Source: Candidatus Saccharimonadota bacterium (GTDB lineage: Bacteria; Patescibacteriota; Saccharimonadia; Saccharimonadales; UBA4665). From it: a stretch of 32,000 nucleotides of DNA. The notes beneath the pieces were generated by a model. That model ran no database searches, was not told the DNA's origin, and saw only the letters and a list, made by a program, of their open reading frames with translations. The translations under genes were made by a program, and so were the position numbers. This document shows positions 7,001-31,929 of this stretch, in pieces. The stretch's first letter is position 1. Each line of letters starts with the position of its first letter. Location: the NCBI GenBank assembly GCA_016700375.1, contig CP065016.1:120001-152000 (forward strand), read 5' to 3'.

Positions 7001-7437
7001 GCGCAGCCAATACACTGCAGGAAATGCTTACCATTAAGTCCGATGATGTCTATGGTCGTAGCAAAGCCTACGAAGCTATCATCAAAAAGACCGAGATTGT
7101 TGGGCCAAAGGTTCCAGAAAGCTTTAACGTGCTCGTGAAAGAGCTACAGGGTCTTGGTCTAAAGGTTGACCTCGTTGCTTCTGACCAAGTAATTGACGCC
7201 GAAGCGGTACTGGCTACAAACATCCACGAAGAAGCAACGCACCCCGCAAAGGTTGAGGCGCCGACATCACTCATATCTGACGTGGATGTCACCAGCGAAG
7301 AAGCTGCATCACAAGGCTTTGAGTTTGAAGATGGCGACGGCAATCCCATTGTGACCGACTTTGACGAGGAAAATACAAGCCTCGTTGCAGCCACGACAGA
7401 CGATGATATTACCGACGAAGAAGGGGAGGAGGCTTAG
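4015..7437 (+). CDS. rpoB: DNA-directed RNA polymerase subunit beta
   Basis: Homology is unambiguous along the whole length (..[33 protein letters not shown].., ..[15 protein letters not shown]..). The start is placed at ATG 4015, 11 nt after AAAGGAG. An in-frame TTG at 3952 is the alternative. Confidence 0.93.
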   Translation: [1140 protein letters not shown]

Positions 7438-7442
7438 TCGCT

Positions 7443-7595
7443 ATGCTCCAATTACCAATTACCAATTACCAATTACCAATGAATTATCAATTTTCAGTTA
7501 CCAATGAAGCTGCAAATGCCACATCGCTACAAGCTAATGTATTGAAAATTGAAAATTGTAAACTGCAAATTGCAGCGACTGAAAGGAGTGTCTAA
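7443..7595 (+). CDS. Spacer-spanning mini-ORF A (50 aa) in the rpoB-rpoC heptamer-repeat spacer
   Basis: The product is MLQLPITNYQLPMNYQFSVTNEAANATSLQANVLKIENCKLQIAATERSV*. This is the only stop-free frame of the spacer. The ATG lies 5 nt after the rpoB TAG, with the SD GGGGAGGAGG inside the rpoB 3' end. The stop TAA overlaps the rpoC ATG (TAATG, 7593-7597). Repeat units are (CCAATTA)x4 at 7448-7475 and an ATTGAAA-type array at 7541-7575. Confidence 0.5.
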   Translation: MLQLPITNYQLPMNYQFSVTNEAANATSLQANVLKIENCKLQIAATERSV

Positions 7596-10500
7596 TGCGA
7601 CGCTATTCATACGGCACGAATATTGCAGATTTTGACGCAGTGCGTCTTGCTGTTGCCAGCAGCAAAGATATAGAAGATTGGAGCTACGGCGAGGTCCTGA
7701 AACCAGAGACCATAAACTACCGAACTCAAAAACCGGAACGCGACGGGCTGTTTTGCGAGCGTATATTTGGCCCAGTAAAAGACATAAACCCGCACGACGC
7801 GAAATACAAGGGAGTTCGCTCTCGCGAAGCTGCCGTTGATAAAAACGGTGAACTTGTTACGAGGAGCATCGTGCGCCGTGAACGCATGGGTCATATTAAC
7901 CTGGCCGTGCCGGTGGCTCACATTTGGTTCTTGCGGGGAACCCCAAGTGCCATGGGGCTGTTGCTCGGCATGACAGTAAAGAGTCTCGAGCGTGTCGCAT
8001 ATTTTGCCGCCTATGTCGTAAAAAGCGTTAATGTTGCTGCTCGTGACCAATATCGAGCCGACCAAGAAGCGCAGTGGCAAGCCGGACAGCAGGCAATCAA
8101 ACTTCGCTACGAGAAAGAAGCAGAAACCGAAGGCGCCGACGTGAAGGCGCTTGCTGAAGCCCAGACCAAAGAACTCGAACAGTTTGACAAAGAATGGGAA
8201 CTGCTTCGCAACCAGCTCGACAGCTTAGTCGCATTCAGTCTTATGAATGAGGGCGACTACCGTGCGCTACCCCGTGAGCTACGCGATATGATTACCGTTG
8301 GTATGGGCGGCGCCGCGCTGCGCGAGCTGCTTGAAGGTATTGACCTCGTGAAGCTGATAGCCGATTTGACCACTGAAGCCGAAGAAGCCAAGGGTCAGCG
8401 CAAGAAGAAGCTAATGAAACGACTCCGTTTGCTCGAAAGCATGGAGCGAGCAGGCATAAAGCCAGAAAGCACCTGCCTGTCGGTTCTACCGGTGATACCT
8501 CCGGACCTTCGTCCAATGGTACAGCTCACGGGTGGACGGTTTGCCACCAGTGACCTCAACGATTTGTACCGCCGTGTCATCAACCGCAACAATCGTTTGA
8601 AGAAACTTATTGAGTTGAATGCCCCAGAGGTTATTCGTCGCAACGAACAGCGAATGCTACAGGAAGCGGTCGATGCGCTCATAGACAACAACAATGCTCG
8701 CAGTGGCCGTGCTGTAGCAGCGACTGGTCAACGCCGTCGACTGAAGAGCCTAAGCGATATGCTGAAAGGCAAGCAGGGTCGTTTCCGCCAGAACCTACTT
8801 GGTAAACGCGTAGACTACTCTGGTCGTTCGGTTATTGTTGCCGGTCCAGAGCTTAAAATCAACCAGTGTGGTCTGCCAAAGATGATGGCCCTTGAGCTTT
8901 TCAAGCCCTTTGTTATTGGCGAACTCATTTTCCGAGAACAGGCACATAACATCCGGAGCGCCACGCGCATGATAGAAACTGGCGAGACAGAAGTATGGGA
9001 CGCACTTGACGAAGTCATTACTGGCAAATACGTCTTGCTTAACCGTGCCCCGTCACTGCACCGTCTGAGCATTCAGGCTTTCCAACCGGTACTGATTGAG
9101 GGTCGTGCTATTCAGCTTCACCCGCTTGTATGTAAAGGGTTTAACGCAGACTTCGACGGTGACCAAATGGCTGTCCACTTGCCGTTATCCGATGCGGCAC
9201 AGGCAGAAGCGCGTGACATCATGTCGGCAAACCGTAACCTCCTGAAGCCTGCCGACGGTTCTCCTATTTTGCACATTGAGCAAGATATTGTCCTTGGGTG
9301 TTACTACCTCACCTATGAACGCCCAGGTAAAGAAGTAGCTCCACGAGCATTTTCGAGCCTCAACGAAGCCTCTATGGCATTTGACGCTGGAGTCATAAAG
9401 CTCCAAAGCCGTGTCCTTGTTTCGTTCCGGGGTGAGATGCGCGTGACGACCCTAGGGCGCCTGTCTTTCAACGAAATTTTCCCCGAAGACTTTGCATTCC
9501 AAGATGAAGCCATGACGAAAAAGCGTTTGCAAAAAGTTATGGGCGCGGTTTACGCGCAGTATGGCCAGGAAAAAACGGCAGAAATTGCCGACAACCTCAA
9601 AGACCTTGGCTTCCGCTACGCAACCATGTCTGGCCTAAGCATGGGCATGGACGACTTCGAACCAATTACCGGGCTCGAAGACGTTTTGAAAGAAGGCGAA
9701 ACAAAGAGCGCTGGCATTTCAACCCAGTACGACCAAGGCTTCATTACCGACGATGAGCGACATCGTCTCACCGTAGAAAACTGGACCAAGATTGACACAC
9801 GTGTGCAAAACATGTTGTCAGAGCAGATGAAAGATCAAGACGGTTCTATGGCTATTGCTATTACTTCTGGTGCGCGCGGTAACGTTTCTCAGATGAAAAT
9901 GTCAGTCGGTATGCTTGGCGTGTTCCAAGATGCGGCTGGTAACGTCATTGAGCTTCCCGTGAAAGCCGGGTACATACAAGGCCTAACGCCGCTTGAGTAC
10001 TTTACCGGTACGCGTGGTACCCGTAAGGCGGTTATTGACATTGCCCTCAAGACTGCCGACGCTGGTTACCTAACTCGTCGCCTTGTCGACGTGTCCCAAG
10101 ATGTCTTTACCATAGACGACGACAGCGATGATGCGTCCGACCCAGGGTTTGCCTTGCTTCGCGCCGACGCTGCTGCCATAGGTGTTACCTACGCCTCACG
10201 GCTCGAAGGCCGTTTTGCCGCCGAAGACCTCAAGGGCTATGTCAAGGCCGGAGAGTTGTTTACGAAAGAAGTTGCCGAAGCTATCGACGCCGATGAAAAA
10301 CTCGACGGCGTCAAAATACGAAGCGCGCTGAGTGCCACATCGGTTCATGGCGTTCCGCAAAAGAGCTACGGAGTTGACCCAGCGACGGGCCATTTGGTTA
10401 CCAGCCATAACCCAATAGGTGTTATTGCTGCCCAGAGTATTGGCGAGCCGGGTACGCAGCTAAGCCTCGACAGTAAGCACCGTTCTGGTGCCGTCGTGGC

Positions 10501-31495: not shown

Positions 31496-31608
31496 TGAGG
31501 TATAAGCATTCAGCGGAAAGGGGTAAGGGGTTTTCGTCTAGAACCCTTACTACTTACTACTTACTACTTACTACTTCTGAAGTGATGCCCGAAGGGAGGA
31601 ACGTATGA
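31495..31608 (+). CDS. Spacer-spanning mini-ORF H (37 aa) in the rplP-rpmC spacer
   Basis: The product is [37 protein letters not shown]. The start overlaps the rplP stop (TAATG, 31493-31497), and the stop overlaps the rpmC ATG (ATGA, 31605-31608). A (CTTACTA)n array runs about 31546-31576. The hairpin is GTAAGGGGTT..GAACCCTTAC. Confidence 0.5.
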   Translation: MRYKHSAERGKGFSSRTLTTYYLLLTTSEVMPEGRNV

Positions 31609-31805
31609 AAATAGCCGATATTCGTAAGCTTACTACGGCAGAATTGACCAAAGAAACAGTAAAGCTAAAAGATGAAATTGCCGAACTGCGTCGTCATATA
31701 TACATGGGTGATAACCAAAACGTACGAGATGTACGTAACAAGCGCAAAGACCTTGCTCGTATGCTCACCGTTTTAAGCGAAAATTTAGTTAAGGAGACGA
31801 AATAA
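31605..31805 (+). CDS. rpmC: 50S ribosomal protein L29
   Basis: The sequence MKIADIRKLTTAELTKETVKLKDEIAELR.. is L29-like in length and position. Confidence 0.9.
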   Translation: MKIADIRKLTTAELTKETVKLKDEIAELRRHIYMGDNQNVRDVRNKRKDLARMLTVLSENLVKETK

Positions 31806-31927
31806 TGGAAAATCCAAATTCCAAATTCCAAACTCCAAACAAATTCCAGCACTCAAATTCCAACGAAGCTCATTTGGAACTTGGAACTTGGAACTTGGAG
31901 CTTACAGCTCCTGAAAGGAGTCTGTAG
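31805..31927 (+). CDS. Spacer-spanning mini-ORF I (40 aa) in the rpmC-rpsQ spacer
   Basis: The product is MENPNSKFQTPNKFQHSNSNEAHLELGTWNLELTAPERSL*. The start overlaps the rpmC stop (TAATG, 31803-31807). The stop TAG lies 2 nt before the rpsQ ATG. The CCAAATT-type array faces a complementary GAACTTG x3 array. Confidence 0.5.
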   Translation: MENPNSKFQTPNKFQHSNSNEAHLELGTWNLELTAPERSL

Positions 31928-31929
31928 TT

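Follow-up and report, generated by a model that had tools for sequence, protein, structure and literature searches.

The window analysed here is a 32,000-nt stretch of DNA from a Candidatus Saccharimonadota bacterium (contig CP065016.1 of assembly GCA_016700375.1, positions 120,001 to 152,000), in which nine spacers of 108–157 nt exactly fill stop-to-start gaps between host genes. ORF (open reading frame) translation and a RplB scan identified the window as the rpoBC/str/S10 region of Saccharibacteria (TM7), with the plus-strand order tig, clpP, rpoB, rpoC, rpsL, rpsG, fusA, tuf, rpsJ, rplC-rplD-rplW-rplB-rpsS-rplV-rpsC-rplP-rpmC-rpsQ. Each spacer consists of tandem 7-nt repeats, a loop, complementary repeats and an extended Shine-Dalgarno (SD) sequence, usually (C)GACTGAAAGGAG, and is spanned by one open frame (hereafter mini-ORF) of 37–50 aa. 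Period-7 arrays make up nearly every spacer (Tandem Repeats Finder, TRF) and, since the second heptamer array complements the first, each spacer amounts to a long imperfect hairpin. The GACTGAAAGGAG motif occurs four times in the window, every time at a spacer 3′ end (0.09 occurrences expected).

All nine spacers (A to I) lie on the plus strand, and six of them form three paralogous pairs. Spacer A (7438..7594, rpoB-rpoC), with CCAATTA and ATTGAAA array arms and the SD module GCGACTGAAAGGAG at 7575-7588, and spacer B (16504..16657, rpsL-rpsG) belong to repeat family 4 and are 80% identical; the stop codon of the A mini-ORF (7443-7595, 50 aa) overlaps the rpoC ATG as TAATG, and that of the B mini-ORF (16509-16658, 49 aa) overlaps the GTG start of rpsG. 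Family 3, with CCTGTCA and GTGACA arms, is represented by spacer C (26902..27040, rplC-rplD) and its paralogue G (30935..31081, rpsC-rplP; 82% identity), the mini-ORF of C (26898-27041, 47 aa) overlapping the rplC stop as ATGA and the rplD start as TAATG, and that of G running from 30936 to 31082 (48 aa). Family 1, with ATGAATC and GATTCAT arms, comprises spacer D (28114..28227, rplW-rplB) and its paralogue E (29680..29787, rpsS-rplV; 80% identity), in which a GC-rich apical stem closes on GCGAAGC or GCAAAGC (28150-28175 and 29725-29745, and likewise in copies from the related loci L004 and L002), the apex being GCCGCAAGGCGGC in D and CAGCAGCGAAGCTGCTG in E. GCGAAGC, known as a DNA mini-hairpin of unusual stability, was found six times in spacers vs. 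1.3 times expected. The D mini-ORF (28115-28228, 37 aa) has the unit CACGAATC in place of CATGAATC exactly at a would-be in-frame TGA, and the E mini-ORF (29681-29797, 38 aa) extends 9 nt into rplV. Spacer F (30169..30304, rplV-rpsC; family 6) has a mini-ORF of 46 aa (30165-30305) with a 5′ ATGA overlap and an SD within a local ACUCC-AGAAA-GGAGU hairpin. The two singleton families are those of spacer H (31496..31604, rplP-rpmC; GGGGTAAGGGG ... CTTACTA x4.4), whose mini-ORF (31495-31608, 37 aa) overlaps its neighbours at both ends, and spacer I (31806..31929, rpmC-rpsQ; AAATTCC and TTGGAAC arms), whose mini-ORF (31805-31927, 40 aa) has its SD in a CUCC-UGAAA-GGAG hairpin.

In these nine spacers and in a further 348-nt rplB-rpsS insert (described below), the mini-ORF starts −4 to +5 nt from the end of the upstream stop codon and ends −3 to +9 nt from the downstream start. 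Every upstream gene has retained its terminal GGAG-type purine run, which now stands within a few bases of the mini-ORF ATG, while a second SD precedes the downstream gene. This anatomy bears out an earlier note on this DNA, which held that the old run serves the mini-ORF and that the insertions sit exactly at stop-start junctions. The note had also grouped the spacers and the rpsJ leader into five pairs, of which three proved sound. The 20-mer TAGTCGCTATGCTCCAATTA of the A-B pair occurs exactly twice (7435-7454 and 16501-16520), as does the 30-mer CCTGTCACCTGTCAC(C/A)TTGGATTATCCTGT of the C-G pair (26924-26953 and 30965-30994, the first coordinate having been given one position off), with zero occurrences of either expected by chance. 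Full-length alignments of C-G (104/127 identical), A-B (117/146) and D-E (73/91), all three of them true paralogous pairs, reach z values of 26–32 against shuffles. The F-I pair (72% identity, z 7.4) is equalled by unpaired combinations such as A-I or B-G (z 7–9), and its likeness therefore reflects shared architecture rather than a special pair. Spacer H and the rpsJ 5′ leader (plus-strand array at 23123..23152) have nothing in common but a 31-nt CTTACTA array. As for the peptide likeness claimed for A and B, its 'TERS' part stems from the conserved SD module, which is read by other families in a second frame as 'LKGA'. Two of the five pairs are weak, and the note was largely right in its overall view of the spacers as inserted elements.

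The window was then compared with 80 related Saccharibacteria loci (81 sequences in total, all operon-centred and referred to by L numbers), in which 28 conserved genes were placed by tblastn and each junction length was measured, a spacer being defined as 60–200 nt (n = 92). The RplB protein is 100% identical in two metagenome-assembled genomes (MAGs), one of which is L002 (JBGAWL010000002), and 72–96% identical in 78 further species-level genomes. The window and L002 show 97–98% DNA identity in rplB and rpsC, and blastn segments of 88% to 98% over their shared genes. In the 'complete' MAG L003 (CP064992), broken tblastn matches in several conserved genes (fusA, rpsJ, rplN, rplX and secY) suggest frameshift errors, and its junction lengths were treated cautiously.

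No 60–200-nt spacer at all was present in 60 of the 81 sequences, whose junctions are of the TAAATG/TAATG type, and the S10/spc junctions of most Saccharibacteria measure −4 to +12 nt (TAAATG, TAATG or ATGA). Filled junctions number 9/11 in the window and 10/16 in L004. The empty orthologous sites that an insertion would leave elsewhere are the rule in most Saccharibacteria and are found in the closest relatives as well; genomes with ~97% identity in rplB/rpsC DNA do not have the same set of junctions filled. The rplC-rplD junction measures 139 nt in the window and in L001, 1 nt in L002 and 2 nt in L003; rplP-rpmC measures 109 nt in the window and 1 nt in L002 (the spacer H site being empty in L002 and L004-L013); rplW-rplB measures 114 nt in the window and −1 nt in both L001 and L002; and, conversely, rplD-rplW measures −1 nt in the window and 258 nt in L002.

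Families, defined by blastn clustering of the spacers, recur in related assemblies and cut across junctions and genomes. The rplC-rplD junction alone holds four families across six genomes, with family 3 in the window, L006 and L023, family 6 in L001, family 2 in L004 and family 4 in L007; in other genomes it is empty. Family 3 is in turn found at six junctions in the 80 loci and the window (rplC-rplD and rpsC-rplP; rplW-rplB in L005; rplV-rpsC and rplX-rplE in L002; rpmC-rpsQ in L021), and also at rpsL-rpsG in L201. Within single genomes, three L004 copies (rplW-rplB, rplE-rpsN and rpsE-rplO) are mutually 96–99% identical, the interiors of the L004 rplC-rplD and rpsN-rpsH spacers show 98.6% identity over 142 nt, and two L010 copies are 98% identical. 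Among independent genomes (TM7-like metagenome contigs), L150 carries a single family at six S10 junctions in a row and nine junctions of L113 are filled, all of them with bridging ORFs. The phylogeny of the copies is incongruent with that of the host genes, with copies clustering by genome and not by junction. Moreover, copies in different genomes are 82–88% identical vs. 78–82% for the strongly constrained DNA of host ribosomal-protein (r-protein) genes, which hints at exchange between lineages. Each of the checks suggested in the earlier note spoke for its interpretation. This comparison shows that copies have been gained and lost, and one family exchanged for another, as strains and species diverged, and that they have been copied between junctions. 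An assembly artefact was rejected as their origin, since numerous MAGs and metagenome contigs independently have the architecture. A half-element occupies the rplN-rplX junction of L006 (~35 nt), with a single GACAAGA-type array that lacks a complementary arm and lies directly before the rplX start; rplN-rplX spacers of 28–36 nt, known by length only, also occur in L004, L007, L009, L012, L013, L016 and L020.

These identities bear directly on a reading in which nothing moves, i.e., in which heptamers arose by local replication slippage at each junction and the likeness between spacers is convergent low complexity. According to PMC4679880, citing Mrazek 2007, no long simple-repeat unit is commoner in bacteria than the heptamer, and slippage is to be expected. 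Array copy numbers do vary between orthologous copies, and the F-I and H-leader likenesses are of just such a trivial kind. However, the identity of 96–99% between junctions of one genome extends over 100–142 nt and includes non-repetitive loops and ends, spacer F at rplV-rpsC is ~92% identical to the L001 spacer at rplC-rplD, and a complementary arm and a non-repetitive 3′ module are always present. Slippage alone is already contradicted by such near-identical non-repetitive segments at different junctions, and we consider it highly improbable.

Element boundaries could be drawn from the near-identical L004 copies, the common stretch of which runs from inside the upstream SD (AAGGA followed, across the boundary, by TTCCAAATGA...) to just before the downstream ATG (...GACTGAAAGGAGCTGCATA). 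Since the element begins inside the upstream SD, the last codons of the upstream protein are rewritten, e.g., from KKEAK* to KKDSK*, or from RGEDK* at empty sites to RGDEL* in the rplC of the window. Only the 15 nt ahead of the spacer are junction-specific, whereas identity in the SD region (−24 to −10) and in the tail follows the family (0.54 vs. 0.35) and shows no effect of the junction, meaning that the SD is borne by the element and is not a duplicated target. A target-site duplication of the SD was rejected by this family-versus-junction test together with the comparison of filled and empty sites. GACTGAAAGGAG is enriched more than 100-fold in spacers, which hold 12 of its 14 occurrences within 0.9% of the sequence. 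The comparison shows each copy to carry its own extended SD module, as the earlier note had proposed for the window. An rRNA end, with which CGACU might lengthen the anti-SD pairing, was found in none of 200 loci. Other copy pairs have only the interior in common, with ~15 nt at each end being junction-specific, a pattern resembling gene conversion, and we infer spread by duplication or gene conversion. The elements resemble miniature inverted-repeat transposable elements (MITEs) in their size of 90–170 bp, the lack of a coded transposase and the presence of up to 10 copies per 20-kb locus.

The most constant property of the spacers is their open frame. An ATG-initiated frame leads from the upstream stop to the downstream start in 84 of the 92 spacers, vs. 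a mean of 14.7 (maximum 24) after interior shuffling, in agreement with the coupling-neutral anatomy previously suggested for the window; the eight exceptions are all located at rpsH-rplF, where the junction is loose in empty genomes as well. The open plus-strand frames number exactly one in 76/92 spacers, and in 67/92 no minus-strand frame is open. The ATG overlaps the upstream stop in 57 of the 84 mini-ORFs (ATGA in 26, TAATG in 31), and at the other end 68 have a stop overlapping the downstream start (TAATG-type in 54, ATGA-type in 14), the median length being 39 aa. Because a 7-nt repeat runs through all three phases, units deviate precisely at would-be stops (cf. CACGAATC or CAAGAATC for CATGAATC, and ATACTTC for ATGACTC). 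By its predicted translation, each surviving copy is shown to be a single open frame, which begins as ATGA or TAATG on or beside the upstream stop and finishes as TAATG or ATGA on the downstream start.

Such frames could be expected of functional micropeptides (e.g., ribosome-associated or regulatory ones) to which the DNA repeats are secondary: they are always open, the context of their SD and start is good, some are annotated as genes by gene callers, and paralogues share peptide motifs such as MRQETRDKRQEL. Nevertheless, in 17 pairwise comparisons of related copies, substitutions were spread over codon positions 1:2:3 as 140:149:134, which speaks against constraint at the amino-acid level. 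In addition, the peptides are unrelated between families, the heptamers are read in three phases, and families differ in whether they read the conserved 3′ DNA module as TERS or as LKGA (10 vs. 7), never using its TGA frame, while the module is untranslated in other contexts. The even distribution of substitutions and the two-frame reading of the module indicate a frame that is kept open while its peptide is free of amino-acid selection, and we give micropeptides very little credence. What the substitution pattern shows to be conserved is the openness of the predicted frame, and not its amino-acid sequence.

With regard to their location, 85 of 99 arrays lie in operon junctions and ~9 in r-protein C-terminal tails, with period 7 dominant (TRF). 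Tail arrays were observed in rpsQ of L002 (13880-13953), rpsE (L002, L003 and L004), rplW (L007 and L020), rplX (L010) and rplO (L030), and seem to be elements that fused into the upstream gene and lengthened its protein, in the manner of the Rickettsia palindromic elements (RPEs) discussed below.

Taken together, these data are best read as follows, with a probability that we put at roughly 70%: the spacers are copies of small (~90–170 bp), non-autonomous palindromic elements that multiply within the genome at coupled stop-start junctions, each forming a translated bridge with its own SD. Their hosts are a sublineage of Saccharibacteria, and the operons concerned (rpoBC, str, S10 and spc) are highly expressed. 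A ribosome finishing the upstream gene would re-initiate on the mini-ORF via the old SD in the last upstream codons, translate through the hairpin and thereby melt it, terminate on the next start codon, and re-initiate there by means of the element's own SD. Coupling and stoichiometry would then survive, rendering the insertion nearly neutral and the peptide a by-product. Spread would most likely proceed by recombination, gene conversion or template switching, for which the SD-stop-start motif (AAGGAG-N5-8-TAATG) that flanks every copy and is present at every empty target may be the recombination substrate; alternatively, an enzyme acting in trans might be involved.

Several points weigh against this interpretation. 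Translation of the mini-ORFs is something we infer from their sequence, and the restriction to coupled junctions was sampled in operon-centred loci only. No transposase, recombinase domain or target-site duplication was found in the domain search of the window (in keeping with the earlier note, which saw no transposase) or in the comparison of filled and empty sites, and the term 'mobile' consequently rests on distribution and not on mechanism. In ~2 Mb of loci, no autonomous insertion sequence with matching arms was seen, the sole larger relatives carrying a PF05635 gene and no known transposase. The sense-strand hairpin is weak as well: spacers fold at a mean of −29.9 vs. −23.6 kcal/mol for shuffled sequences (median z of about −2, n = 79), and the antisense strand is the more stable one in 59/79 spacers (p = 6e-6), which is not so in coding controls. 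This asymmetry is extreme in spacers B and I (in the latter −52.9 kcal/mol for the minus vs. −37.7 kcal/mol for the plus strand). It is explained only partly by the A-rich plus strand, and avoidance of in-frame stops was rejected as its cause (C opposite A at would-be stops in 8% vs. C opposite G in 10%, p = 0.36); it could reflect selection against stable mRNA structure, the A-richness of the sense strand, or a function of the other strand. Within families, double changes were found in 1/27 and 0/15 pairs, the families being too young for an RNA helix to be demonstrated by covariation. What speaks for the hairpin is that wholly different heptamers are matched by their complements in nearly every family; with almost no compensatory change and a weak sense hairpin, a role of the hairpin in the mRNA can only be putative. 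Finally, an untranslated hairpin and SD module before highly expressed genes of Omnitrophota (see below) would also fit an RNA module that benefits the host.

This last point emerged from a metagenome scan for CGACTGAAAGGAG-N4-5-TAATG, which retrieved at least 120 contigs, ~40 of them, among the matches listed, with a heptamer hairpin immediately upstream. Among the same matches, the module precedes rpsI, rpsK, rpsC, rpsH, rpoC, atpA, groEL, dnaK, rpmI, rplU, rpmE, pfkA, metK and others, and three contigs were attributed to Omnitrophota (protein clusters, at least 90% identity), in which the hairpin sits after the stop codon and is untranslated. TM7-like contigs again obey the bridging rule, and period 7 dominates the tandem repeats of the metagenome contigs. 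The Omnitrophota contigs (L137, L149 and L172, with L089, L171, L175 and L189 being similar) have hairpins such as GTTTACAGT / ACTGTAAAC, followed by TTTCGACTGAAAGGAGAAA-TAATG, before pfkA, rpmE, rplU and metK. The bases beside GACTGAAAGGA covary (TTTGC..GCAAA, TTTTC..GAAAA), which suggests a small stem-loop presenting the SD.

In such a host-beneficial reading, the hairpin and the extended SD (GAAAGGAG, similar to a STAB-SD, i.e., a stabilizing SD) would be an intercistronic RNA module that is kept by selection as an RNase III/E site, mRNA stabilizer or translation enhancer, and it would spread through its usefulness instead of as selfish DNA. It is known that the stems of 23S rRNA intervening sequences (IVSs) are RNase III substrates and that the STAB-SD (GAAAGGAGG) stabilizes Bacillus mRNAs. 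The recurrence, among the matches listed, of heptamer hairpin, CGACTGAAAGGAG and ATG before groEL, dnaK, atpA, rpsI, rpsK, rpmI, rplU, rpmE, pfkA and metK, three Omnitrophota contigs included, would suit such a module, as would the >100-fold enrichment of GACTGAAAGGAG in spacers and the better-than-shuffled folding. On the other hand, presence differs at ~97% rplB/rpsC DNA identity and most Saccharibacteria do without elements, different families are interchangeable at one junction, and both the lack of covariation within families and the poorer folding of the sense strand are at odds with a selected RNA structure. At tight junctions the hairpin lies in a translated frame in which ribosomes would keep it melted, and its cleavage would yield non-stop mRNAs. 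General occlusion of the downstream SD was likewise rejected, the SD being paired in 64% of spacers vs. 79% of controls, with occlusion holding for copies A, B, F and I only. We therefore deem an RNA module unlikely, while granting it some weight because of the conserved module and its link to highly expressed genes across phyla.

Multiplying elements that form translated bridges, as favoured above, would also have larger relatives. At rpsG-fusA, an element on the plus strand (17138..17580) consists of an untranslated 5′ heptamer arm of the AAGAGAT type (17145-17176), a gene for a four-helix-bundle (4HB) protein of 121 aa (17178-17543), an untranslated 3′ complementary arm of the TCTTAAC type (17546-17569), and AAGGAG before the fusA ATG at 17581. 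The 4HB gene matches PF05635 (23S rRNA IVS protein, bAvd-like) with an E-value of 3.7e-35 over 17178-17540. The arms are nearly perfect complements, and their long-range pairing appears in both the minimum free energy and the centroid fold (z = −3.0). A PF05635 ORF within a long stem is a trait of this element only, and not of the nine mini spacers. In L002 and L009, the orthologous 4HB gene is flanked by GAGACAA / CATGACTC arms, which are the heptamers of family 1 mini elements, and the element ends in GCGAC...AAAGGGAGC, similar to mini elements. Homologues of the 4HB gene are located at rpsG-fusA in many Saccharibacteria, at atpG-atpD, and at grpE-dnaK in an unrelated contig; heptamer arrays flank the gene on both sides at rpsG-fusA and grpE-dnaK, while only the 3′ array is evident at atpG-atpD. 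These features suggest that 4HB cassettes and mini spacers are related as full-length and miniature forms, and the mini elements are probably gene-less relatives of the larger hairpin cassettes with a PF05635 gene in the loop.

A broader reading of the same features, which we entertain only tentatively, regards the spacers as the gene-less form of cross-phylum ribosome-binding-site (RBS) cassettes made up of a heptamer hairpin and (C)GACTGAAAGGAG, the full form of which holds the PF05635 gene. Elements of the 23S IVS type would then colonize the RBSs of the most highly expressed mRNAs, the 4HB protein would aid propagation or RNA processing, and tight junctions would keep translated mini-ORFs only. 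If true, the range of these cassettes would comprise Saccharibacteria, Omnitrophota and others.

Apart from the heptamer elements, the 348-nt rplB-rpsS insert of the window holds a Cys-rich ORF of 114 aa on the plus strand (29062..29406), which starts 3 nt past the rplB stop and ends right before the rpsS ATG. This ORF has no Pfam match, is not a heptamer element, and is one of a larger group of bridging ORFs that fill that junction and are unrelated to one another: even the window and the ~97%-identical L002 have unrelated ORFs there. Tight r-protein junctions across Saccharibacteria (especially rplB-rpsS, rplE-rpsN and rpsG-fusA) contain ORFs of 65–130 aa (e.g., L002 10838-11212, 9308-9565 and 15467-15712), which are exact stop-to-start bridges, except that most of those at rpsG-fusA end short of fusA. 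Homology among these larger ORFs was rejected, only 3 similar pairs being found among 61 inserts, and no Pfam domain was detected in those tested.

Elsewhere in the window, a 506-aa protein encoded on the minus strand between rpoC and rpsL (11687-13207) contains three mTERF repeat stretches (PF02536, E = 2e-25), a domain typical of organellar transcription termination factors but present here in a bacterium of the Candidate Phyla Radiation (CPR). A coiled-coil ORF between fusA and tuf (19687-20103) has a 21-nt repeat (4.9 copies, MDxRFDK), and the small ORFs 3325-3519 and 21630-21887 share the N-terminus MS(E/Q)DEF(S/K)KLF(R/Q)Y; none of these three has an above-threshold Pfam family. A region of 2.8 kb (23512-26280) with a 533-aa plus-strand and a 290-aa minus-strand ORF, both lacking a Pfam match, parts rpsJ from rplC, and since relatives have anything between 188 and 7081 nt in this place, the S10 operon is split at a variable island. 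The window contains no tRNAs, and an Rfam scan of its whole length yielded no match at gathering score; at E<=1, only sub-threshold eukaryotic miRNA-precursor hairpins were reported, on spacer I (minus strand) and, once, on spacer F (plus strand). Since no curated covariance model matches, known RNA families (r-protein leaders and others) were rejected as an identity for the spacers.

If the spacers are indeed such elements, they would provide a clear example from nature of how translational coupling shapes DNA that is selfish or neutral, with insertions at the most constrained junctions persisting only if translated from stop to start. Filled and empty junctions in near-identical genomes would then offer a natural experiment on termination-reinitiation. 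For annotation, dozens of 20–64-aa 'genes' in CPR r-protein operons would be by-products, and some r-protein C-terminal tails absorbed elements. The ultra-reduced CPR genomes would still host active repeat families, which might serve to type strains and to follow how DNA is exchanged between lineages and perhaps phyla, and the larger relatives may help to find out what the widespread PF05635/IVS proteins do. The earlier note had seen neither the hairpin and heptamer architecture nor the connection with the 4HB gene nor how widely the elements are distributed, and a literature search that included the literal motif retrieved no earlier description of these elements.

Among known systems, the RPEs, reportedly described by Ogata and colleagues in 2000, are said to be short (~100–150 bp) palindromes that proliferate in a reduced genome and are tolerated as translated ORF. 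The likeness lies in a palindromic repeat kept in an open frame (84/92 bridging here), the translation of which is predicted in our case. As compared by description, RPEs lie in frame inside protein genes, whereas the present elements lie between genes and have their own start, SD, stop overlaps and heptamer arms. ERIC/IRU sequences (enterobacterial repetitive intergenic consensus, or intergenic repeat units) and the Correia elements of Neisseria are small hairpin-forming repeats without a transposase that are co-transcribed in operons, vary between strains and sometimes contain ORFs. The RU-1/2/3 repeats of enterobacteria (PMC2759123) are named kin among intercistronic MITE-like repeats. All of these resemble the spacers as small, transposase-less and strain-variable hairpins inside operons; they differ in that they are not known to be confined to stop-start junctions or to form bridging ORFs systematically, in their defined terminal inverted repeats and usual target duplications, and in lacking heptamer-array arms or a built-in SD module.

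The 23S rRNA IVSs with a PF05635 ORF ('S23p', Avd-like) are paralleled by the rpsG-fusA element, the long stem of which encloses a PF05635 gene in a highly expressed transcript, and the arms and 3′ module of which match the mini spacers in kind. The difference is that mRNA junctions (rpsG-fusA, atpG-atpD and grpE-dnaK) are occupied here instead of 23S helices, and that the mini elements are gene-less. Tandem heptamer repeats are also known as the STRR (short tandemly repeated repetitive) sequences of cyanobacteria. The nearest published phenomenon, however, is that of the TAACTGA heptamer repeats upstream of start codons, including those of r-protein operons, in Beggiatoaceae, Cyanobacteria and Bacteroidetes (PMC4679880). 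Both systems have period-7 arrays just upstream of starts, and both are distributed patchily across phyla, which suggests horizontal spread; the loose resemblance between GACTGAA in our 3′ module and AACTGA is a lead only. The TAACTGA and STRR arrays consist of a single direct-repeat heptamer without a complementary arm, have not been reported to form bridging ORFs and in most cases lack a canonical SD, whereas the elements described here employ many heptamers (CCAATTA, CCTGTCA, ATGAATC, GAGACAA, AAATTCC and CTTACTA), have an inverted partner array in nearly all spacers, and carry a strong SD.

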